Assembly: GCA_025611195.1 (NCBI GenBank)
Contig: GCA_025611195.1_4718.2
DNA: 64,000 nucleotides
Direction: 5' to 3' (one strand)
Source of the DNA: a phage
The translations under genes were made by a program, and so were the position numbers. Every line of letters begins with the position of its first letter. The first letter of the stretch is position 1. The notes under the pieces were generated by a model. It did not search any database and was not told the DNA's origin. It was given only the letters and a program-made list of their open reading frames with translations. Positions 19,111-41,411 of this stretch are shown here, one piece after another.

Positions 19111-20685
19111 TTACAATTCAAAATCTTCATCGATAACGCGCTGGGTAAGCACTTTGTCGCTGAAGAACTCCACCTTGCGCTGATGGTATTTACGATGCGC
19201 TTCGATAGAAGTACATACCAGATACCAGAAGGTTGGCGTCATTCCTTCAAACTTCCCTTTCAGCTGACGCAGTCGCCCCAACACCTGAATGTTACCGGTT
19301 CGTGACCCCATCGCTAACGTCATGAACGCCATCACCAAGTCAGGAAGGTCGATACCCGTACCTGCCGATTTCACCGTCGTAACGCTAATATCGTTATCCA
19401 ACAAGACCATGAAATCTTCTTCAGCCGTATAAGGACCGATCTCTAACTCAGGAATACGTTCACTAAGGTAATGCGACAACGACTTACACATATCGACGGT
19501 TGCACAATACACCAGCATCTTCATACCTTCCTGATACTGGTTCATGAAACCTTTGATGATAACCGTATAGATGAAGTTAAAATACGCGAGTTTGAGTTGC
19601 TTGTTCTTCATGATAGACTGTTCGAATATCGTGTGAGAATAAGAACCCCCAAACCCTTTATATCTGACTTTATCTGTACTGCGTAGTCGATACGTCACGG
19701 CATTTACCGCAATGTATTTCTTGTATTCGCCTTTCGCATAACGGGCTTCTTTCGGATACATCAAATACAACATCCGCTCGATGAACGGATCATCGGACAC
19801 CGCCGTTGCTGACAGATAGATGATTTCCGGAATACTAGCGTAACACTTGACCTTAAACAAGAAATGCAATGCTTCATGGCACTCGTCATGAATCAGAAGG
19901 CCTATGCCGGTCTTTTCCCAAAACTCAGCGGGATGGAAGGCATATGGCGCAACGCAGTTATTCTTCTCGTAGTCCGCAATATAACGTTGGAACATGTTCA
20001 AGGAGAACAATGCGATTTTGAAGTCGAGTTCGCCTTGTTCAACCAAGGTTTGAAACTCCAACATACTGTAACGAGGAATGTCAGGATGCGGTGGATCCTC
20101 CTTAGCGTTCCCGCGTATCTCGATAACATCCCCTGGTTCCATCCCGAAGAAGTTCAGTAGTGAGCTTCGCCAACCTGGCATGTATCTCGGCGACAGAATG
20201 ATACCCGTCCGCACACCGCGTCGGAAGGTAATCTCCTGCGACATGGCCGTTTTTCCCGACCCCGTTTGAGCGGTGTTTAGGCTCATTCTGAAGGGGGTAT
20301 CCTTACCCCCGTCCATGTACTCCAACCATTCTTGCTGATCTTCACGCCATGGGAACTTCCATTTCTTTACGAACTCCACTTCTTTACCTGGTGCCGGATC
20401 GTGGTAAACGATTTCCAACCACTCTTTTCGTATCCCTCGGGAAAAGATAAAATCCAAAAACGATTTCAACTGTTCGCGGAGTAAGTATACCTCACTATAA
20501 TCGCTTCTTGCCGCGGCATACGTGTTTATGGTATCGGTAACCATTCTCCGTGTACGAGGGTCGCGCCGTTTCCTCAGATGCAAACAACGGTCTCGAAGGT
20601 AATGGCCGATAAGATGGGCAAATCGAAGTCCGTATCCGCTCAGCCTCATGCCGTGCGAGAAGACATCGATACGAGCTAACTTCAT
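19111..20685 (-). CDS. DExH-box SF2 helicase
   Basis: Motif I AQTGSGKT, motif II LLIHDECHEA, motif III LSATAV, motif V TVKSAGTGIDLPD, motif VI QVLGRLRQ; start overlaps stop of beta-prime-like gene (ATGA). Confidence 0.7.
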   Translation of the reverse strand: MKLARIDVFSHGMRLSGYGLRFAHLIGHYLRDRCLHLRKRRDPRTRRMVTDTINTYAAARSDYSEVYLLREQLKSFLDFIFSRGIRKEWLEIVYHDPAPGKEVEFVKKWKFPWREDQQEWLEYMDGGKDTPFRMSLNTAQTGSGKTAMSQEITFRRGVRTGIILSPRYMPGWRSSLLNFFGMEPGDVIEIRGNAKEDPPHPDIPRYSMLEFQTLVEQGELDFKIALFSLNMFQRYIADYEKNNCVAPYAFHPAEFWEKTGIGLLIHDECHEALHFLFKVKCYASIPEIIYLSATAVSDDPFIERMLYLMYPKEARYAKGEYKKYIAVNAVTYRLRSTDKVRYKGFGGSYSHTIFEQSIMKNKQLKLAYFNFIYTVIIKGFMNQYQEGMKMLVYCATVDMCKSLSHYLSERIPELEIGPYTAEEDFMVLLDNDISVTTVKSAGTGIDLPDLVMAFMTLAMGSRTGNIQVLGRLRQLKGKFEGMTPTFWYLVCTSIEAHRKYHQRKVEFFSDKVLTQRVIDEDFEL

Positions 20686-22688
20686 AACGTGAATACATCC
20701 TCCGGTTTAGGTTCTTTGCGCGGTAAAAGCATGTAGTCGATCGGATGATCCGGCTTCATGGTTGGGATATAACTGTTCGGGTTTTGGAACGCATCCAGTT
20801 GCTCTTGGTGAGCGAACTTCATACTCAAGGAGCGCATGTTCATGTTCTTCTTGAAGGTGCTGAAGTATCGTGTTGTTCCCTGTTTCGGCATGCGATAATC
20901 TTTCGTGTGTGGCGAACGAATCATGCTGGCGTAGAGAATAACATCGAGATGCGAAAGGTTCATTCGCAGACGCTGTGCGCACAAGCGATGCCAATAGTAC
21001 AGCACGTTTGCAACTTCTTCCGGTGTTGCTTCGTCTTCCGAGAGGAACCCGGCACTGAAAGAACCTTTCCCGAATTTGAACTCACGTTCGATTTCTTTTG
21101 CGTATTCCATCATGTTTTTGTGGATTAACGGCATCTGGAATAACGTACGTGAATTGTCCCAATGTTTCAAGTCGAAAATCACAATCCCGTCAGACGTCAC
21201 TTCCCAGCTATGGCGTTTAAGATAACGGATAAACGCTTTACTCGGTACAACAGGACGTCCGCAGAAATCGAAATTGACTTTGAGCTTACGATAGCTTTCA
21301 TCTTTCCTGTCGTAAATCTCCATATCGCAAAGCGTCATGTTAAACAGACGCTGTGGTATCAGCGAACTGATTTCTTCCGCTTCGGCTACATCGTACAACA
21401 TGTTCGCAAGACCTAACTTCATCTTAATCAGCACGTGTTTACCTTTCAGCTCACGTGCGAGTTTGATGTCGTTCATGTTCTGGCTGTAACGAAGGATATG
21501 TTGATATTCCGGTGGGATTGGTGCTGTAGAGACCGTTGACGAACCGTCGTGGTGTTTGGTAGAAAGAATGTTCTGCGTTACCTGTTGCGAGCAGGTACGC
21601 GCTGCGCCATCGCCGACATTATCGGTTAATGCGAAGTTATGACTTAATTCACCATAACACGTTGTGCATACCCCAGCAGGATCGGGATGATGACAATAGT
21701 TAACGGAGCGCATACGCACTGTGGTGCCGATCAATTCTTTCATATGTGGTTGTATCGCTACCAACGAACCGTCATCACGAATAATGAATCGGCCGTGGAA
21801 GCCACGCAGGTCGGTCTCATCACGGATTGGCATCGGGATGGTCTCTCTACTACCACAATCACCAGGATGTAGTCGTTGCACAACCGCTGTCGCTATCTGA
21901 AGTTCACGACCGAAATATTCAGACTTTTTAATCTGCTCTTTGTTGAACAGCAACGATTTCGCCGCAGAACGACTTTCTTTCAAGCTGTCGGGAAGAGAGA
22001 TCAAACCTGACGCGTACGACCGCATTACTGGATCACGGAATATCTCGGAGTTAATATCGGTCAAGAATCCACGCATCCCAATACACTGCAGCACCTGCCC
22101 AATCGAAACGTGTTCGGTTCTTACCGCACGTGCAATAGGGTTTGCATGTAATGTTTTATCGGTGCTCAGTACCTTTGTCAGTTTCTTGTATGCGCTTTCG
22201 ATACCTTCGCGGGTGGGTTCCGCTTCAGCGATGATTTTCTTAACTTCGGGGTGTACGGTAATCTGATAAAAATCATCCGCACAAATAGTTGTTACGTATT
22301 CCTCCAACGCATACGTAAAGAAGTTATACACGTTGTTAAACATATCGAACAGTGCTTTCCAGAGAACCTCACGATTCTCTTGTGGGTAAGCATACATGCA
22401 TTGACGATACGCTGCGCTTTGCAACGCTACCGATGAACCCGCTGTAAACTTACGTTTATCAACCAGGTTCTCTTTTGTCAATGGTGTCTCAGGATACATG
22501 CGATGTACAGACCAGTGCATGTAACTAAAGAAAATGCGTCGCGCACGTAATTCATGAACGCCATCGTCCATCTCGATATATACACGGTCATTAGGCTGTG
22601 CCCACTCGAATACCTCATCAACCGGCCAGTGCATAAGCTCGCGTGCCCTCACACGACGTTTCGTGGTGGTCGTCTGTGTTGTAGTCAT
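20682..22688 (-). CDS. RNA polymerase beta-prime subunit, C-terminal portion (split multisubunit RNAP)
   Basis: QVLQCIGMRGF aligns with beta-prime AGMRGLMA region; VRMRSVNYCHHPDPAGVCTTCYG...TQNILSTKHHDG aligns with E. coli [21 protein letters not shown]...TQLTMRTFHIGG. Confidence 0.65.
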   Translation of the reverse strand: MTTTQTTTTKRRVRARELMHWPVDEVFEWAQPNDRVYIEMDDGVHELRARRIFFSYMHWSVHRMYPETPLTKENLVDKRKFTAGSSVALQSAAYRQCMYAYPQENREVLWKALFDMFNNVYNFFTYALEEYVTTICADDFYQITVHPEVKKIIAEAEPTREGIESAYKKLTKVLSTDKTLHANPIARAVRTEHVSIGQVLQCIGMRGFLTDINSEIFRDPVMRSYASGLISLPDSLKESRSAAKSLLFNKEQIKKSEYFGRELQIATAVVQRLHPGDCGSRETIPMPIRDETDLRGFHGRFIIRDDGSLVAIQPHMKELIGTTVRMRSVNYCHHPDPAGVCTTCYGELSHNFALTDNVGDGAARTCSQQVTQNILSTKHHDGSSTVSTAPIPPEYQHILRYSQNMNDIKLARELKGKHVLIKMKLGLANMLYDVAEAEEISSLIPQRLFNMTLCDMEIYDRKDESYRKLKVNFDFCGRPVVPSKAFIRYLKRHSWEVTSDGIVIFDLKHWDNSRTLFQMPLIHKNMMEYAKEIEREFKFGKGSFSAGFLSEDEATPEEVANVLYYWHRLCAQRLRMNLSHLDVILYASMIRSPHTKDYRMPKQGTTRYFSTFKKNMNMRSLSMKFAHQEQLDAFQNPNSYIPTMKPDHPIDYMLLPRKEPKPEDVFTL

Positions 22689-22833
22689 TATTGCTTTCCG
22701 ATTTAAATGGTTTTATCATACGGTTTACCAAATCCGTTGGACTTTACTATCGTTGTGATAGCATCGGGAATCCCTTCCCTTAGGTTATGTAGGTGTTAAT
22801 ATATCTCCACTGCTGTCGTAAAGGTCAGCAGCA

Positions 22834-23319
22834 TTATCCAGCTTCCTGTTGTATAGCGTATGGATCCATAGCGTCTGACATATTCGCAAAAACGGTGAGA
22901 ATAAACCCCTTTATCTGTCTCACCTCGGTTACACGAAGCCCTTTATCATTACGGTATACGTTTTCTTCACCAACCAACTTCGGCCTGATAGCATAAACCC
23001 CATCAACAAACGGGAATGTCGGATACGGATAAATACCGATACGAATGATGTTTGGATGATCGCCTAGAAGGTCACGCCCAAATGTATCTACTCTACCGTA
23101 AACCGTTCCATCCACACCCTCCACTTCAATGAGATCATTTCGAATATCCTGAAATAGCTGCTCTAATGTGTCGGCGGGGTACGTATATGCGACACCTAAC
23201 GCTGGGTCCTCAATGGTTTTGACACTGAATCCGTTAAGCCAAACAATCTGTTCATCCGCCCATGTTTCTTCATATACCGTTAATCCATCGCCGTATATGT
23301 TGGCGCGTGCTATCTCCAT
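22834..23319 (-). CDS. hypothetical protein (161 aa)
   Basis: ORF track; ATG at 23319 with AAGAGGAAA RBS. Confidence 0.5.
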   Translation of the reverse strand: MEIARANIYGDGLTVYEETWADEQIVWLNGFSVKTIEDPALGVAYTYPADTLEQLFQDIRNDLIEVEGVDGTVYGRVDTFGRDLLGDHPNIIRIGIYPYPTFPFVDGVYAIRPKLVGEENVYRNDKGLRVTEVRQIKGFILTVFANMSDAMDPYAIQQEAG

Positions 23320-23433
23320 AATCTCATTTCCTCTTATACGTTCGGATAGATGACATGTTGGATATACGTTGCCTTTGCATATATTGCTTTATTTCCGTCA
23401 GAAATAACGGAAAATAAAAACAACGACATAGTT

Positions 23434-23463
23434 CCCTCCCACCTCCACATGGGAGAGGGAGGG
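23434..23463 (-). terminator. CCCTCCC / GGGAGGG hairpin
   Basis: 7-bp stem (extendable with mismatches), downstream of the stop at 23477. Confidence 0.5.
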
Positions 23464-23476
23464 CTATTCGTGTTTA

Positions 23477-23842
23477 TTACTCTATGCTGTCTTCTTCAAC
23501 ACAATCCTCTTCGGAACCGTCGAACGTTTTCTGCACCGCAGTGGTATCCCAGTTGGCAGCGTAATCAGCCATCGCTTCGCGCAACGCTTCTTCACCAGCA
23601 TCGCCAGCCAGATCAAGCACAACCAAACCTTGCGCGACGTTTTGAGCGACAGTATCAATAACGGTTGCATCTTCTTCAAAACTACGTACCGGTTCAATGG
23701 TGCCTACATCAACAGCATAGTTCGTGGTCGCTGTAAGCACGGCGACTTGTAGTGCATCGCTATTATCATCATCATGCAGTGCTGCTTCAATACCGATTGG
23801 ACGGGCCAGTTCTTGCAGTGTTAATTTGCGAATTAAGTTCAT
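23477..23842 (-). CDS. small acidic protein (121 aa), member of a local 3-gene family
   Basis: Shares LTLQELAR and VLDL.G..G segments with 23866..24216 and 24335..24748. Confidence 0.45.
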   Translation of the reverse strand: MNLIRKLTLQELARPIGIEAALHDDDNSDALQVAVLTATTNYAVDVGTIEPVRSFEEDATVIDTVAQNVAQGLVVLDLAGDAGEEALREAMADYAANWDTTAVQKTFDGSEEDCVEEDSIE

Positions 23843-23865
23843 TATGTTTTTTCCTCAGGTGAATG

Positions 23866-24216
23866 TTAGCAATCGTTTAAAACTTTTTCGATACGATGGT
23901 TGACGAGTTCATTGAACGACTCTTCAACTTGTTCGATAATTTCATCAACGTCGATATCTAATTGTTGGGGTTGGATAACATGCTCTTTCATGGTTTCTAA
24001 CCAGTATTCGGCTTTAACCATAACGTTAGCTACTTGTTCGACCTGGCTGCGTATGTCGACGATCTGGCAGTCAGGATTTTTAATATCGATGATGTGTCCG
24101 TGCTGATTGATAAAGCCTAGTTTATTCGACGCCTTTACCGCATCGCGGGCAAGTTCTTGCAAGATTAAATTATTTACGTAGTTCACTGCTACGGAACGAT
24201 TTTCTTTATCACTCAT
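23866..24216 (-). CDS. small acidic protein (117 aa), member of a local 3-gene family
   Basis: Start moved from 24381 to ATG at 24216 (MSDKENR) with AAGAGGA RBS; the longer ORF would read through the hairpin at 24295-24323. Confidence 0.45.
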   Translation of the reverse strand: MSDKENRSVAVNYVNNLILQELARDAVKASNKLGFINQHGHIIDIKNPDCQIVDIRSQVEQVANVMVKAEYWLETMKEHVIQPQQLDIDVDEIIEQVEESFNELVNHRIEKVLNDC

Positions 24217-24294
24217 ACCAGGGATCCTCTTTAAGTCTTCACATTCTAGTGTTAAGCAGTTAAAATAAACCGTCCCTTTAATCAGCATAAACAT

Positions 24295-24323
24295 CCTCCT
24301 CCTACCATGCGGGCAGGAGGAGG
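24295..24323 (-). terminator. CCTCCTCC / GGAGGAGG hairpin
   Basis: 8-bp inverted repeat between stop of 24335..24748 and start of 23866..24216. Confidence 0.5.
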
Positions 24324-24334
24324 CGTAATATGCA

Positions 24335-24748
24335 TCAGAAAGGTGTGCGATTCTTATATTCGAATAATGTCTGAAGGACACATCGTGTTAACGAGTTTTG
24401 TAATTCGATACGTCCTTGTTCTCCGAACAGATCCAACACCATCATCCCTTTTGCTGTTTTCTCTGCCACTTCTTCACAAATCTGTAAATTGTACATGTCG
24501 TCATTGCCGAGTTCCTTTCGACCGATCGAACTGACACGCATCAACTCACCTTTACTATCGCGAACATCGGAGAATGCATCATAGACCGCATCGATGTTCG
24601 CAGAACGCGTCAAACCCTCCGCTTCGCGCCACTCTCGATATGTACCATCAAGCGTTTGTTCCTCGCCCGAGGTTGTTGATTCGCTGTTGGTGGTTGGGCG
24701 AATTAAATGGGGTGTTATCATCGCGATCACGCTGTCGTAATGGTCCAT
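24335..24748 (-). CDS. small acidic protein (137 aa), member of a local 3-gene family
   Basis: MMVLDLFGEQGRIEL resembles GLVVLDLAGDAGEEAL of 23477..23842. Confidence 0.45.
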   Translation of the reverse strand: MDHYDSVIAMITPHLIRPTTNSESTTSGEEQTLDGTYREWREAEGLTRSANIDAVYDAFSDVRDSKGELMRVSSIGRKELGNDDMYNLQICEEVAEKTAKGMMVLDLFGEQGRIELQNSLTRCVLQTLFEYKNRTPF

Positions 24749-24759
24749 CGTTTACCTCG

Positions 24760-26928
24760 TTAGCTTTCGCAGTCATCTGCGTCGATGATTTGTCCGCCAG
24801 CAACGTTCAGTTGATGATACAGAATCCTCAACGCACGGTTGCCACCAATGGGATACTTCTCGAAGTTGGTCGCAATAGGAATCGCTGACGGCTTATCGGT
24901 CGCATAGATGCTTTCAGTGATGCTATCCACCTGTTTTGGATTGTTCGCATAGTCCATAAAGACGCTCGCAAACCATCCGCCAGCGAAGGCGGTAACTTCG
25001 CGATGTTCAGATTCGCCACAGTAACGAGTCGGTTGCTCTTTACCGGGAGAACTGTATTTATCGCTATTACTGAGTTTCGACGGTAATCCATGCGCTTGCA
25101 ATTTAGGGATACCCACAGCCGACCAATCGTTCGCCGTCTTCTCCAACATCATGATGTACGTGTCACCGATCGCAATATCGTTCTTGGTTGTCCGCCACTG
25201 TCCAGAACGCCCGCGGTACCGTACAGGACCTTTCTTCAACGGGAACTCACGAATCAGATTCTCCATACGTTCTGAACCTGCTGCGATACTGTCCGTCGGG
25301 ATATAAACTTCCGTACCGTGGCGCTGTACGTACCGTAAATGATCCCATTTATCCTCATTCGTGATACAGTATTTTTCAACAACCTGTTCCACGAACTCAG
25401 GACTGACGATATAGTAATAGCGCATCAGTGTGTTCCAGGCGGTCTCCAGATCGCCTGCATCCATCACTGGTTTCAGTTCACGCATGATCTGATCACCAAC
25501 GCCGTTGATGTATGGCGCATTAACACGACTTAAACTCATCCTTTTAATTACCGTGCTATCGTCAAACATAAAGTCCGCAACGTTACCCCATTGGTCAACC
25601 GGCATTTCATCGTCTTCCATGATGTCGGTTACGACGAATTTATCGCCTGCCATACCGGTGAATTTAAACCCGATGCCTGGAACAACGTCATACGTGTATG
25701 TGATGGTCACACGCCAATCATCAAGATTCTCTTTACGGTAATCGCGGGTCGGTAACACATGGCGTAGCTGTCCGTTAGGATTGCGGATATCAATACCGTG
25801 TTCAGCGTCAGCCAGGTTCAACCACCACATCACCGTTTGATGATGACGTATCGGCGTACCAACGCGTTCACGTTCGTACTTACGAACAGCATCCTGAATT
25901 CGGGTGTAAAGCAAACCGATTGCGTTCTCGTATTTCAGGAATTGACGATACGGAGGACGCATCTTCTCTTCCATCATAATCGCGCGCTCGCGGGCTTGAC
26001 GTCCAGAACGACGATGTCGATCGCTGACAACATCGATATCCGTTACACGCGCATTCGGTTCAGCGTAAGTGAGATCATCGTAAACATAATCCACACGCTG
26101 AAGATTACACGTCATCATGTCAACAACGCTGAGGATAGGATCTATTTCGCGTGTTGCTGCAAGTAACCCATCCTTACGAATACGCTCACCGTTCTCGGGT
26201 ATCGCTTGATATACCTCATCATCGCCGTAGAGATTAATTGGATATCGTGATTTACCTGATGTGATCGTTCGCTTCTCAATGCCGGTACTGGTGAAATGCT
26301 TCAATACACCACGACGGGCAACGCCACCATCTTCAATACACTGGTAGAAGCTACCGAAACACACCTTGCAATCGCGACCGTAACCCCACTCACGTGTTTC
26401 TTGATTGATCGCTGGGCTTTCCATCAAACGAGAATATCGCGGTACGATCTGGCCTCGACGAAGGGAATGGAACAAGTTGGTTGGTCGAAAACGGAAACCG
26501 TACTGCTGATGCATGATGTGATGCTCAGGCACTTCAAGCAAGCGTAGCTCGTGACGGTTACCATCCTCTTGGTTTTCGTACAGCACGTAATGCATCGTGT
26601 TTGTTTTGATGCTGTTTGCTGTATGTCCTGGTTGAAACCGTGGAATGATATCTATGATGCGAGATTCAACTGGAAACTCTACTGACCAAGTGTTCTGTCC
26701 GTACTGGTATTCAATCCCCGTCGTTAGTCGGGACGGCTTCGCATCTTTGATAACCAACGCTTGGCTAAGATGTCCACCAAACATCGCAGCGCGCTGTGCT
26801 GAGTTATAATGCAATAGCCCGTTAAGTCCAGTCCCTACGCCAGTATACTCCTGTTTAATGGGAATGATTTTACCTTCAGCGATTGCCTGCTTCACAGATT
26901 CATAAAGAGGTTTTTCTTTATAATGCAT
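24760..26928 (-). CDS. RNA polymerase beta-subunit-like protein (C-terminal catalytic region)
   Basis: GDKFVVTDIMEDDEMPVDQWGNVADFMFDDSTVIKRMSL resembles the beta GDK..RHGNKGV..EDMP..DG.P.D..NP..VPSRM region; start moved to ATG at 26928 (MHYKEKP), since the track ORF overlaps the divergent plus gene. Confidence 0.5.
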   Translation of the reverse strand: MHYKEKPLYESVKQAIAEGKIIPIKQEYTGVGTGLNGLLHYNSAQRAAMFGGHLSQALVIKDAKPSRLTTGIEYQYGQNTWSVEFPVESRIIDIIPRFQPGHTANSIKTNTMHYVLYENQEDGNRHELRLLEVPEHHIMHQQYGFRFRPTNLFHSLRRGQIVPRYSRLMESPAINQETREWGYGRDCKVCFGSFYQCIEDGGVARRGVLKHFTSTGIEKRTITSGKSRYPINLYGDDEVYQAIPENGERIRKDGLLAATREIDPILSVVDMMTCNLQRVDYVYDDLTYAEPNARVTDIDVVSDRHRRSGRQARERAIMMEEKMRPPYRQFLKYENAIGLLYTRIQDAVRKYERERVGTPIRHHQTVMWWLNLADAEHGIDIRNPNGQLRHVLPTRDYRKENLDDWRVTITYTYDVVPGIGFKFTGMAGDKFVVTDIMEDDEMPVDQWGNVADFMFDDSTVIKRMSLSRVNAPYINGVGDQIMRELKPVMDAGDLETAWNTLMRYYYIVSPEFVEQVVEKYCITNEDKWDHLRYVQRHGTEVYIPTDSIAAGSERMENLIREFPLKKGPVRYRGRSGQWRTTKNDIAIGDTYIMMLEKTANDWSAVGIPKLQAHGLPSKLSNSDKYSSPGKEQPTRYCGESEHREVTAFAGGWFASVFMDYANNPKQVDSITESIYATDKPSAIPIATNFEKYPIGGNRALRILYHQLNVAGGQIIDADDCES

Positions 26929-26959
26929 AGGACTTCCTATTATCGAATTGAGGTACGTC

Positions 26960-27313
26960 ATGTCTAACACGCCCCTGAACGACTTTCTTAAGACAAACCC
27001 CGATGACCTCATCCACGATCTTGATTTCAGGAACGTTGTTGAGATGCATCTGGAATATTTCAAAAATGCCGGACTGGTCTCTACGATAGACATACCACCC
27101 GAACGCGCCTACGAATTCGATGGTAACTTTTATGGATTGTGTCGTGTTCTGCTCGGCGAGGGCAGTGAATCAATGCACTGGATCACCATGAGACTCAATG
27201 GTTATCGCGACCCTACGGAATACACGGCCGATGTTCTAACCATGAAGATTGTCGATACAAGCGCAATCAACACATTAAAACAGCAGTACCGCACAATCCA
27301 CTACAGCGCTTAA
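26960..27313 (+). CDS. hypothetical protein (117 aa)
   Basis: ATG at 26960 preceded by GAGGT; followed by a bidirectional hairpin. Confidence 0.4.
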   Translation: MSNTPLNDFLKTNPDDLIHDLDFRNVVEMHLEYFKNAGLVSTIDIPPERAYEFDGNFYGLCRVLLGEGSESMHWITMRLNGYRDPTEYTADVLTMKIVDTSAINTLKQQYRTIHYSA

Positions 27314-27318
27314 GATAA

Positions 27319-27347
27319 CCCTCCCACAGCGTAAAGCGTAGGGAGGG
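27319..27347. terminator. CCCTCCC / GGGAGGG hairpin between convergent genes
   Basis: 7-bp stem with 15-nt loop between plus stop 27313 and minus stop 27379. Confidence 0.55.
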
Positions 27348-27378
27348 CATTTATGCCGTCGTTCGTTGGCTTAGCACA

Positions 27379-28708: not shown

Positions 28709-28714
28709 TATGGA

Positions 28715-30302: not shown

Positions 30303-31889
30303 TTATTTTTTTCCTCTTAAATTTACTACATGTTCATTTAATCGAACAACTAATTGCACAAGCTGCTGACGGATATCTGCTGGACAAAGCATCAATCCTT
30401 TACGATCAGCTGGGACTTTCTCAAGGATTTCCGGACCTGCTGCGGAAACATCCCAATCCCATTCACAAAACGCATCAGCCACCATGTTAATACCGACAAC
30501 CGGTAAAGTTGTACGTTCATCTTCATACATGGCATGCGGATACAATTTATTGACGGTAATGACCTCCTGTGGTTTTAACTGATGGATAATCTGGTAAACG
30601 TCGTCGCGTTTAACCTGGATACCTACGGTCAGCGCAGCCAGTTGAGGAAAACCCCAATGGTCTAATAAACACGCTGCGATCGCTAACGCTTTTGCCTGAT
30701 GTACGGCTTCAATCGGTGATAGACTTCTCGCTGGAAGATGGCTATCAAGCAACCATTGTGCCAATGCTCGGCATCCACGGTTGATTGGTTTTAACTCAAC
30801 GCTGTCATCATGTTTAGCGTAGGTGTATCCGTCGTAACGTTTTGCGATACGCGCATACATGTCTTCAACTTTACCGTAAGGTGCCGTTTCATCGATGTCG
30901 TGCAGCACCCGTTCCATCTGGGTAAGATACGCGATGTCGAGAATGAGTACGCGCGGTGAACGTTTATCTTTCACCATCAACGCATCGATCACGCCTTGGC
31001 TATCTTCGTCTTGCGCGTTCCCTCGCGGGGTTTTCTCGCGAATCGGTCCGCTGAAACGTCGTTCCGTACAAAGGTTATTCACATAGCTAAAGATCAACGT
31101 TACCAGGTGCGTACAACTTACCAACACCCCATCTTTAACGACAGGCTGTACGGCTTGGTCCAAATCGCGTACTGCGAGACGGCGAACGATGGCTTGTGAA
31201 CGCAACCAACCGGGTACTTTCTCCGTCGACATGTAATCCACTGTCATCGACAGCGTGATCTTTTTATCACCTGTCTGCGCACGGATATAATCTTCCAGTC
31301 GGTCGTAAGCAGCGATATCATGAATGCGTGTTTTATACATTAACGACATAGCTACTTCTTCTTTACGTACCGTCCCGTACGTTTTCCCTGCGTCAATCAG
31401 AAACTCCGCCCAAATCGGCACCATCAGACGGACGTAGATCGCTAACGCCGTTAACTCAACGTAATCATTTCGTAAATAGGTTTTCTCGGGTATATCATCC
31501 TCACCTAATGTTGTTTTCATGTCCGGCGGTAATTTTACCCAACCTGGGGTATTACACAACGCCAGAATCTCTTCATACACAACCGGTTTGTAAATTTCAC
31601 CAACAGCGCGGCTCAACTCCTCCATTTGTTGTTGTGGAGCAATGTAGTTATCCATCGCTTCACGTGCTTTAACGAACCCTTCGAAGATGTCGTCGATTCG
31701 ACGTGGGTTCTTTTGTTCTATCCAGGCGAGATACTTGTTAATCTCCCGCATCTGATTGCTAGCCATATCCCCATCAATCTTGATGTAACCCTGGCCTGAA
31801 AATTCCACGGTACGTCCGTCACGATGTTTGATGAGATAGTGATCCAGCTTTTCTTTGCCTTGCGTCGTAATGACGGGCACTATGTGCAT
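30303..31889 (-). CDS. hypothetical protein (528 aa)
   Basis: ATG at 31889 with AAGAGGTTG RBS; TATATTAC promoter motif about 90 nt upstream. Confidence 0.55.
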   Translation of the reverse strand: MHIVPVITTQGKEKLDHYLIKHRDGRTVEFSGQGYIKIDGDMASNQMREINKYLAWIEQKNPRRIDDIFEGFVKAREAMDNYIAPQQQMEELSRAVGEIYKPVVYEEILALCNTPGWVKLPPDMKTTLGEDDIPEKTYLRNDYVELTALAIYVRLMVPIWAEFLIDAGKTYGTVRKEEVAMSLMYKTRIHDIAAYDRLEDYIRAQTGDKKITLSMTVDYMSTEKVPGWLRSQAIVRRLAVRDLDQAVQPVVKDGVLVSCTHLVTLIFSYVNNLCTERRFSGPIREKTPRGNAQDEDSQGVIDALMVKDKRSPRVLILDIAYLTQMERVLHDIDETAPYGKVEDMYARIAKRYDGYTYAKHDDSVELKPINRGCRALAQWLLDSHLPARSLSPIEAVHQAKALAIAACLLDHWGFPQLAALTVGIQVKRDDVYQIIHQLKPQEVITVNKLYPHAMYEDERTTLPVVGINMVADAFCEWDWDVSAAGPEILEKVPADRKGLMLCPADIRQQLVQLVVRLNEHVVNLRGKK

Positions 31890-32993: not shown

Positions 32994-33827
32994 TCAGCGG
33001 AACATGTCCAACAGAAAACGTTTTGCGAAGGGGTCGCGTAACTGGTTGACGCCAAAGCGTGTACGGTCTTCCGTTGTTAACGGATTCCACTGACTCTGTT
33101 TCGCAAGATCTAACAGCATCCTTTTTATTTTCACCGGCCCGCTGTTAAACTGTACGGCTTGGTCGCCGAACGTTCCCAATGTCATCTTTGTAAATGGGAG
33201 GTTCGCAACCTCTGGACGATCTCCACCAGTAAGTTTGGTCGACCACTGATGTTTTCGTTTCAAAGTTCCGGTATGACTCTCTACCAAAATAAGTTCACCA
33301 AAACCGGTTCTTGCCAACAAGTCAGAAACATAGTGCGTAGTGATATACGACGTTTTGGTTATCGTGGGTAATTTACAATCCATCGATTCGATATTGGGGA
33401 GTCGATCTACAGACGCCATCAACCCACGATAAAGTGTGGCGAGTCCTTTTTGTTTTTCGGTGTGTGGCTCCTTGTGTATAGCGTGCGGATAAACACGCTT
33501 TATTGACGCATAGGTTGGCGCATATATCCGCAAACGAATATGGGGAACGAGTTCATTCACCAACTGCCTTAGCTGCAGCAACTCGTTTTGAAAATCCCCC
33601 GTTATCATCGATAATGGTAATTTATGCTGTTCGACGTCTTCAAAGCTTTCAACAAAATTGCGCGCTAAAGTACGCAGGTTGAACAACCAATCCATCGGCG
33701 TTTCTGGCTGTTGCTGCACGGCTGATAATGTTGCTGACGTCCCCACCGATAAAGGATAATCACCTAACGTGCGGGCGTACATATCGCTCATACCCCACAA
33801 CTCCTTCTTATCATGGCAACGTATCAA
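32994..33827 (-). CDS. hypothetical protein (277 aa)
   Basis: ORF track. Confidence 0.5.
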   Translation of the reverse strand: MIRCHDKKELWGMSDMYARTLGDYPLSVGTSATLSAVQQQPETPMDWLFNLRTLARNFVESFEDVEQHKLPLSMITGDFQNELLQLRQLVNELVPHIRLRIYAPTYASIKRVYPHAIHKEPHTEKQKGLATLYRGLMASVDRLPNIESMDCKLPTITKTSYITTHYVSDLLARTGFGELILVESHTGTLKRKHQWSTKLTGGDRPEVANLPFTKMTLGTFGDQAVQFNSGPVKIKRMLLDLAKQSQWNPLTTEDRTRFGVNQLRDPFAKRFLLDMFR

Positions 33828-34953
33828 GCCAAGCAGAAACCTTTAAGGCATCAACGTTCGGGTATTTATTACGGATGCGTTCGACCAGCAAACGCTTAAC
33901 GTTGTCCTTTGTCAAGTCCCCGCCTTTCTCGATAACGTTATTGACAAAACTGTTCTTTAATAACGACTGGTTGTTCTTGGCGTCCGTTTTAATTGTCCAG
34001 ATAAAACCTGGATACAAAGAAGGGATAGAACGAAACGTTTTCGCTGCGTCGTCTTCCTTATCACAACGTATTCGGATGTGATCGCCCTTCTTCAATGAAG
34101 CCAATTCCCGTTCCAATACACGAATGATTTCATCTCCAACAAGACCGTGCAGTTTTATCGTCTTGTAGACATCTGCTTTCTTGTTCTCAACAAATTCCCA
34201 TTGGTCGTTAAACGATTCTGTTAACGTATAACGGAGGTACCCCTTTGGACCTTCTTCGCCATGCGACAAGCGACCGAACGAACCGCCAACCATGATACGT
34301 CCTTTCTGGGATTGTAAGTGGATATGCCCACTCACGACCCACCCTTGGGTCTTCTCTACCATTGCGTTATACGCATCGCTGCTATGAACACATGTCGCTT
34401 TTAACGCTTCTGGTGGAAGCTGATATTCAAACGCGCCGTGCATCAGAATGAAGTCCGGCGATCCCTTCTCATCAATAAGTCGGTTCACAGCCGACAACGT
34501 CACATCCGGATCGTGGCTGTAGTTATCTGGAAGATAGAGCACTTTTAAACCAAAGTCTTCATCAACCATGCAGAGATCATCGTAATAACGAACTTTCGCT
34601 CCTATCTCCATGACCTCGTTCTGTTCAACGAACCACTGGCTTTGCTTCTGGTCATGTAAATTGGTACCTTCAAGAAAGATCAACGTAATATCGTGTTTTC
34701 TCGCATACCGTAACAACCAGGTACCCCAGGCACGAACAGCAACCACGTCACTCGTTACAAATGTCGTAATACGATCGAAGACATCACCACTGAATGTAAT
34801 CACGTCAAGCAGCGCAGGATCTTCTTTTGTGATATAATAACGTAGCTGGCTAATCAGATTCACTGTCGGTGTTTGACGATGGATAAAGTGAATATCCGAC
34901 AAGTTGATTCCTCGTAATACCCCAGGCGTTTTATTTCGACTGAAGTCTCGCAT
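33811..34953 (-). CDS. Mre11/SbcD-like metallophosphoesterase nuclease
   Basis: Calcineurin-like motifs: FSGDVFD, EGTNLHD, ILMHGAFE, SGHIH. Confidence 0.55.
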   Translation of the reverse strand: MRDFSRNKTPGVLRGINLSDIHFIHRQTPTVNLISQLRYYITKEDPALLDVITFSGDVFDRITTFVTSDVVAVRAWGTWLLRYARKHDITLIFLEGTNLHDQKQSQWFVEQNEVMEIGAKVRYYDDLCMVDEDFGLKVLYLPDNYSHDPDVTLSAVNRLIDEKGSPDFILMHGAFEYQLPPEALKATCVHSSDAYNAMVEKTQGWVVSGHIHLQSQKGRIMVGGSFGRLSHGEEGPKGYLRYTLTESFNDQWEFVENKKADVYKTIKLHGLVGDEIIRVLERELASLKKGDHIRIRCDKEDDAAKTFRSIPSLYPGFIWTIKTDAKNNQSLLKNSFVNNVIEKGGDLTKDNVKRLLVERIRNKYPNVDALKVSAWLDTLP

Positions 34954-36662: not shown

Positions 36663-36692
36663 GTCCCTCCCCACCCGAAGGTAGGGAGGGAC
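36663..36692 (-). terminator. GTCCCTCCC / GGGAGGGAC hairpin
   Basis: 9-bp stem, 12-nt loop, downstream of the stop at 36704. Confidence 0.55.
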
Positions 36693-36703
36693 CACAGATG
36701 TAT

Positions 36704-37168: not shown

Positions 37169-37254
37169 TTTTACTATCCTCGGATTTCGTTAGGATTTGA
37201 TTTCCAATATAAGGACAATGTGATATGCCTTATACAGTCGATTGATGTTGTACA

Positions 37255-37279
37255 TCACTTAAGTAATATAGCCGTGAAA
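37255..37279 (-). promoter_or_regulatory. candidate phage early promoter (minus-strand TTTCACGGCTATATTACTTAAGTGA)
   Basis: Near-identical to the motif at 13944..13968; 90-110 nt upstream of the minus ATG at 37168. Confidence 0.5.
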
Positions 37280-37288
37280 AATGTTGGA

Positions 37289-38104
37289 TTAACGTGTTCT
37301 CCTATCACGATGCGTATACGACTGAAGACCGATGTCCATATGCGGTAACGTCAGCGTCTGCCAGATCTGTCGTGCGTAGCGATCGAGTGTATGGTCGTCA
37401 GTAACACAATCGACTGGTTCGATGAGGTGAGTCGTATACTGGCTTTTCTCGGAGAAAGGTTCGATGTTAGCGGTGTCCCCTAATCCGCTTTTCACCGTGA
37501 AGACGAGACGGGTAATTATCATCGCCTTATGCTGCTGTTCATTATAGCGAAGGCTACGATATACAGCATAGCTCCCCCCTTTTAGGCTTCGGGTATAACG
37601 AAGGTCGGAGGTCGTCTCGGAAATCTGATACAACATCCAATCCAACGTATCACGCCAGTACGCATCATCCACATCAGGAACCGTGATGCCATAACGCGTA
37701 GGCAGCAGTTCTAAAAGCAGTTTATAAAGTCCACGACGCAGACCATGCTCTTCTGTTTCAGACAAACCGTTTCCAACGTAACGTGAGATACGCGTACGTA
37801 AATACGTACGGATGAACATATTTGTCATCAGTGATTTCGCGCTACTACTGTTATCCTCAAAGCGATCAACACTGAAACTCGTTTCAATCAGCTGCCCATT
37901 AAAGTACAATGCGGCAACATACATCGCATTACTGCTATCTCGTTCAATGTTTAAACGCCCGCAGATATTGGCTGCGTCGTTCATGGTAAATTCTAACTTA
38001 TCGTGTTCGATACGGTAAATAATATCCTCTTGGGTTGCTAAGCTCGCAATGCGACGATAACCCGGAGAAGTGCGTTTTACACCCATGATTGTCCTCGTTT
38101 TCAA
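37289..38104 (-). CDS. hypothetical protein (271 aa)
   Basis: ORF track. Confidence 0.5.
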   Translation of the reverse strand: MKTRTIMGVKRTSPGYRRIASLATQEDIIYRIEHDKLEFTMNDAANICGRLNIERDSSNAMYVAALYFNGQLIETSFSVDRFEDNSSSAKSLMTNMFIRTYLRTRISRYVGNGLSETEEHGLRRGLYKLLLELLPTRYGITVPDVDDAYWRDTLDWMLYQISETTSDLRYTRSLKGGSYAVYRSLRYNEQQHKAMIITRLVFTVKSGLGDTANIEPFSEKSQYTTHLIEPVDCVTDDHTLDRYARQIWQTLTLPHMDIGLQSYTHRDRRTR

Positions 38105-38126
38105 TTTAAGATTGCGTGCGGCATAG

Positions 38127-38153
38127 ACCCTCCCCGCCTTATGCAGGGAGGGT
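38127..38153 (-). terminator. ACCCTCCC / GGGAGGGT hairpin
   Basis: 8-bp stem, 11-nt loop, downstream of the stop at 38168. Confidence 0.55.
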
Positions 38154-38167
38154 AGCCATTAAATGGA

Positions 38168-38806
38168 TTAACCTAATTTACCACCGGCGATATTGGTGAA
38201 ATCTTCGCCATCAGGAACTTGCAGTAGAATACGTGCCATGTCCCAGTTGGTTAATGTGATTGCTTTATCATCGATACTCAGTTCTGGTAGGTCGAGTTCA
38301 TGATCATCAAACTCGTAGGAAATACTCCACGTTTCATCTGTTTTAGGATCTGTCATCAATACACCGTCTGTCACACGCATGTAGTCCGGATGCAGTTCAT
38401 TACTGAACGTACTGAACGGATCGGTGTAACATTCAGCATACCCTTCGATCTGCTGACGCTGTGCCTTCGTACGTAATTCAGGGCATGCCATAATCAGTTG
38501 TCGAGATATGCCGTTTGCAGCACGGAAGTCTTCCACGGTGTTACATGGCATAACCACATCGTCATGGAAGATGTTCTCCGATTGTCTCAACAGCGTCTTA
38601 CGGAGTTCAGCATAGTTTATCTGATTGAACGCATCGAACGTTGCTAACGATTCAGCGTAAAAATGCTTTACGTGTTCGCTTGCGCCGCCGAGGCTATTCA
38701 TCAACTTGTGACCATACTCCATGAAGCTTTTATCGAGACCGGAGGACATTTCTCCGAACCTCAGTGCACGATAACTGTCTCGTCCACCTGTAAATATTTG
38801 CGCCAT
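38168..38806 (-). CDS. hypothetical protein (212 aa)
   Basis: ORF track. Confidence 0.5.
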   Translation of the reverse strand: MAQIFTGGRDSYRALRFGEMSSGLDKSFMEYGHKLMNSLGGASEHVKHFYAESLATFDAFNQINYAELRKTLLRQSENIFHDDVVMPCNTVEDFRAANGISRQLIMACPELRTKAQRQQIEGYAECYTDPFSTFSNELHPDYMRVTDGVLMTDPKTDETWSISYEFDDHELDLPELSIDDKAITLTNWDMARILLQVPDGEDFTNIAGGKLG

Positions 38807-38821
38807 TACAGGCGTCCTCCT

Positions 38822-39061
38822 TTAGCAATGGTTGTTAGTTGCTTCTATTTCATCAAGATACGGTTCTACGTCATCGCCCTCCACGAATTCGTTGAACCAA
38901 CAGTCAATGGTAGAAATAACCGGTGACTGGTGTTCACATTTCTTAGATACCTTAAAAGGTACGTTATTATCCATCATACCGAGTTCGGGTCGAAAACGCC
39001 CGAAATGTTTCGCAGTCCAAATGTCTGGGACGATATGGTTGTTCATCGTGGTGTTCAGCAT
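38822..39061 (-). CDS. small ORF immediately 3' of the intron region; possible downstream exon of the beta-prime-like gene
   Basis: ATG at 39061 with GAGGT RBS; MNNHIVP and LGMMDNNVPF weakly resemble the beta-prime segment following the catalytic loop (MAVHVP, LMMSTNNILSP). Confidence 0.35.
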   Translation of the reverse strand: MLNTTMNNHIVPDIWTAKHFGRFRPELGMMDNNVPFKVSKKCEHQSPVISTIDCWFNEFVEGDDVEPYLDEIEATNNHC

Positions 39062-39064
39062 GAG

Positions 39065-39740
39065 TCGCTACCTCATACCCGCAGCTTTACCTGCAGCTTC
39101 CGGTGTTACCGGAATGTCCAGAATACATCTTATCCATATTCCAAATGGAACGTAGGACTTCCGCGCTGGATCTCGCTTGAGACCACGTATTCGTTGAACG
39201 TTCTCCTGAACGGAGCTTCGCTGCTGATCGAACATTGTCGTGTACGGTAGGCATCCCCGAAGGGATTGTCATTGAAGCCGCGTACATCCGCTACCTTGTT
39301 TCTACCTTATCGGTTCCTCTTACGAGGCGTAGCGGCCTTAGCCCTTCCCAGCAATTCACGGAATCCAAGCTCTTCCTTTCGGAAGGCAGGGCCTATGATT
39401 AAGCATCCCCGTCGCTGTTATCGACTATATCTTCATCCTCGTTGCGAGGAGTCTCCCGTTTGGGTCTGTGTTTAACAGAGCCTACTCTACTCAACATCGC
39501 GTCTTTCGATAGTCTGTGAGCACACATCTTAACGAACATTCGTGGATTCCTAAACAGGTGAACGTTCTTGTTGAGATGCTTCGCTGCGGATTATTCCCGT
39601 CCTACCTCTTTTACCGTACCCAGTTCATTACGCTGGCCCTCATCTATGTCACCATGATGAGTTGGTGTGTAGTCCGATTACAGAAACTTCCCGTCAATTA
39701 GAGAGTTTTAACTACGTTCCTGTTACCAGAAACCAGATCC
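39065..39740 (-). ncRNA. group I intron-like element B (approximate boundaries)
   Basis: Minus strand carries Q-like AATCCGCAGCGAAG (39592-39579), R-like GCTCACAGACTATCG (39521-39507) and S-like GAAGATATAGTCG (39433-39423); no long ORF. Confidence 0.5.
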
Positions 39741-39814
39741 CGACGGTATCAATAAATCAACGTAAGTTATTGATTTAATTGAAAAACTGAAATCTGCATT
39801 ATCTAAATCTTCAG

Positions 39815-40185
39815 TATGGTTCGCTACTCCATACCCGTACCTCATGTACTGCTTACGTCTTTCACGTAAGGATAGACTATATCTTTCACCCTCAGCATTA
39901 TCTGGTCGGGGCTCCCATTTCGGCGGTCAGATGACCGGTGGTTTCCCACGCCGCTTGGCCCTAACGCCCGTAAGCGATAGTCGTTGAGCACATCTCCGTT
40001 CTGGAGACTTCGCTGCGGATTCCCCAATCCTTGCCGCTTTTACCGTACCTGAATGATTAGTTCAGCCCCACGCTCTGTTCCCAGGCATGGTTGGTGGACG
40101 AGGCTCTAAGTAGGTTCCCGCATTAGAGAGTTCCTCGTAACAACATTTCTGCGTTACTGGGCCTAACGACCCTTTCAAGATCATC
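39815..40185 (-). ncRNA. group I intron-like element A (approximate boundaries)
   Basis: Minus strand carries P/Q-like GGTAAAAGCGGCAAGG...AATCCGCAGCGAAG (40044-40008), R-like GCTCAACGACTATCG (39987-39975), S-like AAAGATATAGTC (39885-39875) and a P9-like hairpin CTTACG-TGAAAGA-CGTAAG. Confidence 0.55.
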
Positions 40186-41411
40186 ACGCTTAACCCGATG
40201 GTGTTATCCTGCGGATCGCGTTTAACCTTGGTGATTTCAAGACATTGGTTACTGCTTCGGTCAAGTGATGGGTTTCGAACAAAGCCGCACACAATCCCAT
40301 CGAACGGTGTATCAGCAATAAGCTCATCATGCAGCTCGCTCATCATCGGATGATAATTACGGACATGTTCCGCAACGAACGCACGTGCTGCTCTCGGTGA
40401 ATAACCGCGATGGAATAACTTGGATTGGATATGTTCTTTATTGGTTAAAGTAAATGGTGCGTATGGGAAATGCAGATGATAATAACGATGGTTCGCTGTT
40501 ATCGAACTGATTACGGTACGCGTGGTGAATGGATGTAATGTACCTAATATGTTTTTACGCGTGATACCTTTCTTCTTACCGATGAACTCATCGAAAATCG
40601 CCGCGTGGTATTGCAGCAGCTTCAATTGCACTTTCGCCATCCAGTTTTCTTTCTTTCTGGCGCTCAAAGGTGTTGTTGGATGATAGATACTATTCAGTGT
40701 ACCAATAGCATCGATCGCACCTTCCATTTTGCTATCTGCATAACGGCCGGTCGGTGTATTTTCGATAACGAACATCATGGCCGCAGGAAAGCTGATATAC
40801 TGACTGAAGAACTTATCACGATGGATACGGATGAATTCTCGTAGCGTGTCAACTTTCTCTGTGTTCTTCGGTCCACGTAATGTGGGTCCTTTATACAAGA
40901 TCTCCATGATGCGATCGAAGTTCTGTATAAAGCTATTTACACCACGCCGTATCCCGAATACATCAAATTGCTGCTCCAGATAGTTCTTGAGTTCAATGGG
41001 TCGTTTTACATTTGGACGGTAACTGGCATCAATGAGCCACGTCATCGTTTCGAAGCTTTTGATATTCAACTCGCTTGCCAGCACGAGATGGACCAACGGG
41101 TTAATGAACGCATCGATTCCTTCAGGGACACGCGCCCAGACCGTCGAACGAATCTCCTGTTCTGCTGGGTAGGTTACAACCGTTTTACAGTTTGGACACA
41201 CCGTGCCGAGCAACTCACCGCGATTGTAGAAACCACAACCACATTGTGGCGTGATATCCAACGTATCGCTGGAGTAAACACGGGTGATAAAACTGTTTAA
41301 TTTCTTCTTCTCTTCGACGACTTTTGTATCGTAATCGTTCAACAAAATCGGCGTAAAGGGAAGTTCTGCGAGCTGTCTATCGAAACTCACGATATCGAGC
41401 ATGATGGCCAT
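40062..41411 (-). CDS. RNA polymerase beta-prime subunit, N-terminal portion; 3' end of this ORF probably reads into intron A
   Basis: Zn-binding CGCGFYNRGELLGTVCPNC; GKKKGITRKNILGTLHPFTTRTVIS aligns with beta-prime [24 protein letters not shown]; ORF ends before any DFDGD catalytic loop. Confidence 0.6.
   Translation of the reverse strand: MAIMLDIVSFDRQLAELPFTPILLNDYDTKVVEEKKKLNSFITRVYSSDTLDITPQCGCGFYNRGELLGTVCPNCKTVVTYPAEQEIRSTVWARVPEGIDAFINPLVHLVLASELNIKSFETMTWLIDASYRPNVKRPIELKNYLEQQFDVFGIRRGVNSFIQNFDRIMEILYKGPTLRGPKNTEKVDTLREFIRIHRDKFFSQYISFPAAMMFVIENTPTGRYADSKMEGAIDAIGTLNSIYHPTTPLSARKKENWMAKVQLKLLQYHAAIFDEFIGKKKGITRKNILGTLHPFTTRTVISSITANHRYYHLHFPYAPFTLTNKEHIQSKLFHRGYSPRAARAFVAEHVRNYHPMMSELHDELIADTPFDGIVCGFVRNPSLDRSSNQCLEITKVKRDPQDNTIGLSVMILKGSLGPVTQKCCYEELSNAGTYLEPRPPTMPGNRAWG

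Follow-up and report, generated by a model that had tools for sequence, protein, structure and literature searches.

The window examined here, a 64,000-nucleotide (nt) stretch of phage DNA (contig GCA_025611195.1_4718.2 of GenBank assembly GCA_025611195.1), very probably carries the non-virion RNA polymerase (nvRNAP) genes of a nucleus-forming phage related to Escherichia phage vB_EcoM_Goslar (NC_048170; hereafter Goslar), with the gene for the beta-prime N subunit of this enzyme interrupted by three group I introns. The three introns are packed in 26 coding bases of the Mg-binding loop, where they separate Y from NADF, NADF from DGDA and DGDA from M. By sequence comparison, the window is predicted to encode four of the five nvRNAP subunits, namely beta-prime N, a gp68-like subunit, beta C and beta-prime C. 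A preliminary description of this DNA had listed three split polymerase open reading frames (ORFs), 20682..22688, 24760..26928 and 40062..41411, and assigned them to the fragmented RNA polymerase (RNAP) typical of phiKZ-like phages. All three are present, on the minus strand, and the phiKZ-type architecture is borne out by matches to PHROG families and PDB chains, by the catalytic motifs and by synteny with phiKZ gp50-gp75.

The ORF 40062-41411 (449 amino acids) had been aligned with the zinc-finger and clamp region of beta-prime, and this much holds: the zinc ribbon (CGCG...CPNC) is present, and the protein matches PHROG 2987 (E value 2e-113) and the phiKZ chain 7ogp_A (PHIKZ055; 1.5e-59). 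Both matches, however, are limited to residues 1-414. These residues are 100% identical to Goslar gp247, and the similarity to the Goslar protein and to all homologues ends at residue 414, just ahead of the expected NADFDGD motif, so that DFDGD lies beyond the ORF and its final 35 codons are intron read-through. At the catalytic site, intron-less homologues read ...LKAPNADFDGDQLNMTLLPDNY... (phage 201phi2-1) or similar.

Read at the DNA level, beta-prime N is a four-exon gene of which the ORF 40062-41411 is only a part (Table 1). The join of 41411..40169, 39802..39790, 39414..39402 and 39046..38822 yields an in-frame mRNA of 1494 nt encoding 497 amino acids (...MILKGYNADFDGDAMNNHIVPDIW...), and NADFDGD is restored only in this spliced product, for which the predicted junction peptide is GYNADFDGDAMNNHIVPDIWTAK; all alleles share one mature sequence. 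Splicing in silico raises the PDB match from 205 to 255 bits, the alignment running without gaps through all three junctions to residues 41-495 of 7ogp_A (phiKZ gp55/gp56.1; E value 1.1e-74), and extends the coverage of PHROG 2987 from 1-414 to 1-474 of the 478 positions (381 to 445.6 bits). Cellular beta-prime chains are matched by the spliced product but not by the unspliced ORF. An unspliced message would give a 449-amino-acid product that lacks the catalytic aspartates and stops 35 codons into intron B. The protein encoded by exon 1 is 100% conserved across relatives with 90-97% DNA identity, a conservation in the face of DNA divergence that indicates purifying selection.

Table 1. Predicted subunit genes, exons, introns and neighbouring genes in the polymerase region of the window
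Feature	Coordinates	Strand	Basis or remark
nvRNAP beta-prime C-terminal subunit, phiKZ gp74 / Goslar gp165 orthologue	20682..22688	minus	PHROG 3015 and PDB 7ogp_D
nvRNAP beta C-terminal subunit, phiKZ gp71-73 / Goslar gp171 orthologue, uninterrupted	24760..26928	minus	PHROG 3295 and PDB 7ogp_C
nvRNAP fifth subunit, gp68-like sigma-position promoter-binding factor; Goslar gp175	30303..31889	minus	tblastn, PDB and PHROG 3209
Beta-prime N exon 1: zinc ribbon, clamp, start of double-psi beta-barrel (DPBB) A	40169..41411	minus	ends ...MILKG plus the first base of the Tyr codon; last base U
Intron B, group I, 366 nt, no ORF	39803..40168	minus	Rfam RF00028
Exon 2, 13-nt micro-exon 'at aat gca gat tt' (Y-N-A-D-F, partial codons at both ends)	39790..39802	minus	contiguity in relatives
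Intron A, group I, 375 nt, no ORF	39415..39789	minus	Rfam RF00028
Exon 3, 13-nt micro-exon 'c gac ggg gat gct' (F-D-G-D-A, first codon partial)	39402..39414	minus	contiguity in relatives
Intron C, group I, 355 nt, no ORF	39047..39401	minus	partial Rfam core match
Exon 4, MNNHIVPDIW... to stop	38822..39046	minus	in Goslar, the separate hypothetical protein gp185
Superfamily 2 DExH helicase, phiKZ gp75 / Goslar gp164 orthologue	19111..20685	minus	motifs and tblastn
Imp1/gp69 homologue	28715-30301	minus	tblastn 5e-8
Imp6/gp67 homologue	32132-32920	minus	tblastn 3e-16
SbcD-like nuclease	33811-34953	minus	situated between the polymerase genes
Imp3/gp59 homologue	38168-38806	minus	tblastn 2e-10
phiKZ-type chimallin (nuclear shell protein)	41504-43399	minus	Pfam and PHROG
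Divergent family B DNA polymerase	44815-46968	minus	Pfam and PHROG

The intron boundaries are fixed by alleles that lack intron B, A or C. The alleles were compared in a set of 12 sequences, the window and 11 related Goslar-like loci (L007-L009 and L016-L023) that come from scans of viral and metagenome contigs and share 90-97% DNA identity with the window, none being identical to it. Intron B is exactly absent from Goslar, L008 and L018-L020, intron A is absent from L008, L018-L020 and L022, and L018-L020 and L022 precisely lack intron C, their coding sequence passing from gcN directly to atg aac aac. The contiguous coding sequence is gac ttt gac ggt gac gcg atg aac aac in L018-L020 and at aat gct gat ttc gac ggg gac gcg atg aac in L022. 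Exon 2 is joined directly to exon 1 in Goslar and to the DGDA codons in L022; exon 3, which differs from its Goslar counterpart (gac ggt gac gct) by synonymous substitutions only, abuts both flanks in L022 and exon 4 in L018-L020. In 12 of the 12 sequences, two exon anchors lie 48 nt apart once the intron lengths are subtracted (for the window, 1144 = 48+366+375+355), and none of the 12 is free of introns.

The same set displays five intron configurations at four insertion sites within 30 nt: introns B, A and C in the window, L009, L016, L017, L021 and L023; intron A with an HNH/NUMOD1 endonuclease gene, followed by C, in Goslar; C' and C'' in L008; C' only in L018, L019 and L020; and only intron B, with an HNH endonuclease gene, in L022. 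The fourth site is that of C', which shares 72% identity with C and interrupts NADFDGD between its Ala and Asp codons. Intron A of Goslar has a 1065-nt insert in which the endonuclease gene, a 336-amino-acid HNH_3/NUMOD1 ORF (L001 23236-24246), sits toward the 3' end of the intron, looped out by a 14-bp stem that lies directly 5' of the 3' splice site; in the window, this stem-loop is cleanly deleted. The L022 endonuclease is a 324-amino-acid HNH_3/I-HmuI-NUMOD ORF (915-1886) near the 5' end of intron B. The splice-flanking codons vary only synonymously, and the haplotype tracks the intron type (window 40169-40180 and 39790-39802; L001 24655-24680; L008 5230-5251), with ttg aaa ggg t in the B-bearing alleles, ctc aaa ggt t in Goslar and ctt aag gga t in the C'-bearing alleles, a pattern compatible with co-conversion or with co-evolution of codons and guide sequences. 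In L008 (5617-5624), the exon before the C-type intron ends in gcc, so that a C-G pair would replace the U-G wobble normally found at the 5' splice site; in the same copy, the first base of the intron and the base opposite it have changed places, from U-A to A-U.

All three introns of the window have U at position -1 of the 5' splice site and a terminal G at the 3' end. In intron A, a 7-bp P1 joins CAGAUUU, the 3' end of the exon, to GGAUCUG in the intron, and CGACGG of the next exon pairs with CCGUCG directly adjacent to the guide (P10, 6 bp), which is the canonical P1/P10 layout. The Goslar P1 of intron A consists of exon CCGACUU and guide GAGUCGG, the synonymous exon changes being offset by compensatory changes in the guide. 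Intron B has P1 GGGUC/GGCCC and P10 UAAUG/CGUUA, and in introns B and C both pairings are 4-5 bp long. The micro-exon sequences 'at aat gca gat tt' and 'c gac ggg gat gct' sit between the ribozyme cores in order and in the correct frame, and each is shared between P10 of the upstream intron and P1 of the downstream one. Within the family of intron C (the copies of the window, Goslar and L009, and two divergent copies of L008), 32 of the 101 consensus pairs show compensatory substitutions. In the E-value mode of the Rfam search, intron A matches RF00028 with 46.9 bits (E value 8.5e-9 over the whole window; 39415-39781), intron B matches it at full length with 29.6 bits (0.0013 over the whole window; 39853-40189), and intron C in part, through the P3-P7 core only, with 16.7 bits (39159-39363). 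Minimum free energy z-scores, moderate for intron C (-2.80) and weak for intron B (-1.46), were not relied on as evidence of structure.

Two alternative boundaries were considered and rejected. The P1 that Rfam itself proposes for intron A (UAAAUCAAU/GUUGAUUUA) would place the splice site 21 nt downstream and destroy the frame, so that the exon/guide pairing with covariation is preferred. A different 3' splice site of intron C (DGDA-LNTTMNNH...) would keep the 'LN' of the homologues, but the L008 sequence is unrelated there and the loci without intron C, L018-L020 and L022, have no such codons between gcN and atg; the 'MLNTT' start of the ORF 38822-39061 falls in the conserved, covarying 3' hairpin of intron C. 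Sequences resembling the core of intron B occur in Bacillus phage SIOphi, where they separate the pieces of a split DNA polymerase gene, and in coliphage Av-05, next to the terminase gene; part of intron A resembles a PhiPA3 stretch annotated as a fragment of a gp71-like RNAP beta gene.

The subunit ORFs match PHROG families with E values from 1e-68 to 1e-180 and chains A, B, C and D of the phiKZ nvRNAP with E values from 1e-28 to 1e-87. Pfam gives nothing above threshold for these ORFs, with a single sub-threshold Rpb2_6 match (16.3 bits), and the subunit assignment therefore rests on the PHROG and PDB sequence searches, which place all three of the originally listed ORFs among RNAP families; the profile-search test put forward in the preliminary description would have misled had it been confined to Pfam. 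The beta-prime C protein (668 amino acids), correctly described before as the trigger-loop region, matches PHROG 3015, 'RNA polymerase beta subunit' (9e-170), PDB 7ogp_D (PHIKZ074; 6.5e-87) and gp74 itself (blastp, 2e-96), and directly matches bacterial beta-prime chains at residues ~733-976, around the bridge helix and the trigger loop. Its bridge-helix stretch and CxHP...CxxC zinc site align with those of gp74.

The assignment of beta C to the catalytic C-terminal region of beta stands as well. The ORF, open from 24760 to 27093, matches PHROG 3295 (3.5e-180) and PDB 7ogp_C (PHIKZ071; 6.9e-86), and both conserved DPBB lysines are kept in FKFTGMAGDKF, which aligns with K386 of phiKZ and the following HGxK motif; in phiKZ, gp71-73 provides the beta DPBB, the flap and part of the clamp (PMC8287921). 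The likely start is 26928, which has an AGGAAG Shine-Dalgarno sequence, is the start in the Goslar annotation and precedes the onset of homology by ~25-30 residues. The longer form starting at 27093 was rejected: it has no Shine-Dalgarno sequence, its first ~80 residues have no homology, and it overlaps a plus-strand gene annotated in Goslar. Between beta C and beta-prime C lie two small overlapping ORFs without family matches (23866-24381 and 24335-24748), within which a 12-bp GC-rich hairpin, CCTCCTCCTGCC...GGTAGGAGGAGG, is located at 24295-24323 of the minus strand.

The preliminary inventory, correct in the three genes that it listed, overlooked a fourth inside the same interval, that of the gp68-like subunit. 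This protein is matched by phiKZ gp68 in a tblastn search (7e-36), matches PHROG 3209 and aligns with PDB 9rjs_B/7ogp_B (PHIKZ068; 1.6e-28) across residues 23-518, that is, over nearly its full length. In phiKZ, gp68 is an essential fifth subunit that occupies the sigma position and contacts promoter DNA (PMC8287921). For the beta N subunit, a tblastn search with phiKZ gp123 gave no match in the window (best E value 0.73); this gene is expected elsewhere in the genome, and its absence is no argument against membership of the other genes in the nvRNAP set.

Judged by its sequence, the window is part of the genome of a Goslar-like, nucleus-forming (Chimalliviridae) Escherichia coli jumbo phage. 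This assignment follows from the identity to Goslar, the presence of chimallin and a family B DNA polymerase, and the synteny with phiKZ, in which translated gp50-gp75 match the window in the same order, every one on the minus strand. The DNA identity to Goslar is 93.9% over 20000-27500 and 96.3% over 37500-42000; by local alignment, Goslar is collinear with the window over 17001-46000, the sole exception being a rearranged 1.1-kb stretch (39416-40170). Among the polymerase genes lie homologues of phiKZ nuclear import factors, detected by tblastn on the minus strand (Imp1, Imp6 and Imp3 in Table 1), which makes the interval of 20 kb a conserved block of early genes for 'nucleus and transcription'. 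Terminator-like strong hairpins with T-runs on the minus strand, at 47070-47043 and 36695-36660 (stems of 12 and 16 bp, respectively), bracket a block that runs from the DNA polymerase gene through chimallin and beta-prime N to the genes downstream of the latter. Sigma-70-like promoter sites are not enriched (26 vs 31±5.5 and 11 vs 17±3.4 in shuffled sequence), which is only weakly consistent with a behaviour like that of the phiKZ nvRNAP. A 743-amino-acid ORF at 60034-62265 (minus strand) matches the terminase large-subunit family, the match being confined to its first ~200 residues.

The gene that overlaps beta-prime C encodes, as previously described, a DExH helicase, with the motifs GSGKT (residue 142), DECH (267) and SAT (292), a tblastn match to phiKZ gp75 (3e-49), a PHROG 16 match (9e-26) and sub-threshold Pfam matches to ResIII, DEAD and Helicase_C; a palindromic hairpin lies 3' of it, at 19057-19078. 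The overlap of its start codon with the beta-prime C stop codon, ATGA at 20682-20685, is read directly in the sequence, and its GGAGGA Shine-Dalgarno sequence is inside the beta-prime C gene. Goslar has the same 4-nt overlap, and phiKZ gp74 and gp75 overlap by 17 nt. The helicase is probably co-transcribed with beta-prime C and translationally coupled to it. The succession of beta C, beta-prime C and helicase genes is shared by distant relatives, namely Erwinia phage Special G, Pseudomonas phage 201phi2-1, Salmonella phage SPN3US and, with one gene interposed, Ralstonia phage FLC4-11C; in a Bacillus jumbo phage (a Takahashivirus), the helicase comes after an annotated RNAP beta-type subunit gene, one gene removed. 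Helicase and polymerase are found in about the same set of phage records (309 vs 289).

These overlaps, the recurring gene order and the similar record sets could all be taken to mean that the helicase is a dedicated accessory of the nvRNAP, for example, a transcription-coupled translocase or an RNA/R-loop helicase, and the preliminary description had indeed suggested an RNAP-associated helicase. The overlap and the conserved neighbourhood on which that suggestion drew are real, but the suggestion itself over-reads them: the purified and solved phiKZ nvRNAP consists of five subunits without gp75 (PMC8287921), one study regards gp75 as a helicase of DNA replication with a late entry into the nucleus (bioRxiv 10.1101/2024.03.24.586471), and the conservation of gene order in an early operon requires no physical association. 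A dedicated accessory role thus appears unlikely. The neighbourhood of helicase and polymerase is deep and conserved and fits co-expression, and physical association is not implied.

Far less probable is the possibility that the ORF 40062-41411 is a complete 449-residue beta-prime N, with the downstream 1.1 kb representing a spacer or decayed mobile DNA and the ORF 38822-39061 being unrelated. This is how the ORF reads, the Goslar annotation shows likewise a truncated coding sequence and a separate 79-amino-acid hypothetical protein, and no intron is found at the Rfam gathering threshold. Such a product, however, would lack the essential DFDGD, the codons for NADF and DGDA lie in order between the ribozyme cores and vary only synonymously, and the spliced frame aligns without gaps both to homologues that have no intron and to the chain of phiKZ; moreover, relatives that lack an intron carry the same 48 coding bases contiguously at that place. 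The four-exon gene model is preferred, and several observations weigh against it or against the nvRNAP assignment as a whole. Introns A and B score under the Rfam gathering score of 50 and intron C is recognized by its core only, such that no match is obtained in the whole window at that threshold; P1 of introns B and C is short; and the z-score of intron B is unremarkable. Without beta N, the enzyme is incomplete in the window. Splicing, including self-splicing, as well as subunit assembly and the timing of expression are all inferred, and a long-read transcriptome study of phiKZ, under the conditions used, did not detect splicing of the comparable introns predicted there (PMC10914365). The solved phiKZ enzyme nevertheless uses the fused gp55/gp56.1 sequence.

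It is still less probable that the three ORFs encode the RNA polymerase packaged in the virion (vRNAP), or a mixture of virion and non-virion subunits. In favour of this reading, both sets consist of split beta and beta-prime homologues under the same generic annotation, 'RNA polymerase beta subunit'. Nevertheless, each ORF has its best match in the corresponding chain of the solved phiKZ nvRNAP (1e-59 to 1e-87), the neighbourhood is collinear with the phiKZ nvRNAP locus, gp54-gp55 and gp68-gp75, and the phiKZ virion subunits gp80 and gp149 have no match in the window; the phiKZ orthologues are absent from purified virions and present in the late-transcribing enzyme (PMC4666361, PMC8287921). 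On these comparisons, all three ORFs are assigned to the non-virion set. It is hardly credible that these sequences are pieces or pseudogenes of bacterial rpoB/rpoC residing in a chromosome or prophage rather than genes of a functional phage enzyme; this would account for the weak direct similarity to cellular beta-prime (E values 4e-5 to 5e-3) but neither for the Goslar-like jumbo phage context with chimallin, phage DNA polymerase and terminase nor for the purifying selection on exon 1.

The split polymerase is already known as defining machinery of the phiKZ-like phages (Chimalliviridae), with a solved structure and an annotation in Goslar. The phiKZ nvRNAP (gp55/56.1, gp68, gp71-73, gp74 and gp123; PDB 7OGP/7OGR/8QUE/9RJS) has the same subunit split, the same catalytic motifs and the same gene order beside chimallin and the gp75 helicase, with 25-31% protein identity over the full length. 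In phiKZ, too, the gp55 gene is broken at the DFDGD region, where gp56 (HNH) and then gp56.1 follow; this is one endonuclease-bearing element compared with the three ORF-less introns of the window. A further difference is the host, which is E. coli for the phage of the window. Conversely, gp71 and gp73 of phiKZ are split by the gp72 element, whereas beta C of the window is uninterrupted. The gp72 element sits exactly at the conserved HG(N/D)K lysine motif; with gp72 at the beta lysine motif and introns at the beta-prime loop, both catalytic barrels appear as insertion targets. In Vibrio phage pir03 (L006 2456-5305), beta-prime N is annotated as two coding sequences, the first ending ...GPNAD and the second containing ...FDGDMM..., which points to a further insertion site between D and F of NADFDGD.

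Goslar has the orthologous locus (gp164, gp165, gp171, gp175 and gp247/gp185; 94-96% DNA identity) with the same ATGA overlap and differs in the absence of intron B, the endonuclease insert in intron A and the synonymous differences in splice-flanking codons. RefSeq annotates the Goslar orthologues as RNA polymerase subunits, and the deposited annotation has one Intron_gpI feature, the truncated coding sequence and the separate 79-amino-acid ORF. The nvRNAP of Bacillus phage AR9 has a different promoter-specificity subunit, and AR9 is not known to form a chimallin nucleus. This enzyme (PDB 7S00/7S01/7UM0) belongs to the same split family and is far more distant, its chains C, D and d matching at 1e-14 to 2e-17. 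Cyanobacterial rpoC1/rpoC2 split beta-prime after DPBB-A, at the same position as the phage genes (PMC7598289), but the cellular enzymes keep alpha, omega and an unsplit beta, and the phage beta-prime genes are 17 kb apart.

Interruptions of the active site in chimallivirus polymerase genes are known as well, and what appears to be new is the particular intron array at this site. The interrupting elements gp56, gp72 and gp179 of phiKZ were predicted in 2002, as cited in PMC10914365. Phage genes with two or three group I introns, small internal exons and, in some cases, HNH endonucleases are documented (PMC11878797, PMC11620839); among these, Twort orf142, the DNA polymerase and terminase genes of Bastillevirinae and the PhiPA3 vRNAP gene that harbours the gp210 intron are interrupted at conserved catalytic residues, and gp210 has been shown to aid competition (PMC11620839). 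Compared with these genes, the locus described here stands out by the packing of three introns into 26 coding bases, by micro-exons of only 13 nt, by four insertion sites within 30 nt and by five allelic combinations among 12 near-identical sequences. No description of a triple-intron micro-exon array was found in the Goslar paper, recent reviews or the PhiPA3 paper.

In phiKZ, the nvRNAP is absent from virions, is expressed early, transcribes middle and late genes and is resistant to rifampicin (PMC4666361, PMC8287921). By analogy, the polymerase genes described here would be early genes transcribed by the injected virion RNAP (PMC4666361, PMC8287921, PMC7598289), and their products would assemble into a five-subunit enzyme without alpha or omega, which would be imported into the chimallin nucleus and transcribe middle and late genes there. 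The beta-prime N mRNA would have to self-splice three times to give the 497-residue subunit with an intact NADFDGD.

Tentatively, the 30 bases that encode G-Y-N-A-D-F-D-G-D-A may be viewed as a hotspot for which at least four distinct mobile group I introns compete, using four insertion sites and occurring in at least five combinations among phages that are otherwise ~96% identical; in the window, each of the three ORF-less ribozymes would have to excise around the 13-nt micro-exons for an essential enzyme to be made. Such an array may set incompatibility or competition between co-infecting phages, as in the case of PhiPA3 gp210, and may be tolerated because the nucleus separates transcription and splicing from translation. 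For annotation, the implication is that a gene model in the deposited style, a truncated beta-prime N plus a small ORF, conceals the catalytic site of the polymerase, and the four-exon join is needed. For the biology of these phages, the intron hotspot offers a natural system for the study of homing, endonuclease loss, co-conversion of flanking codons and phage-phage competition, with five allelic states, intron copies with and without an endonuclease, and synonymous exon haplotypes in a tractable E. coli jumbo phage.

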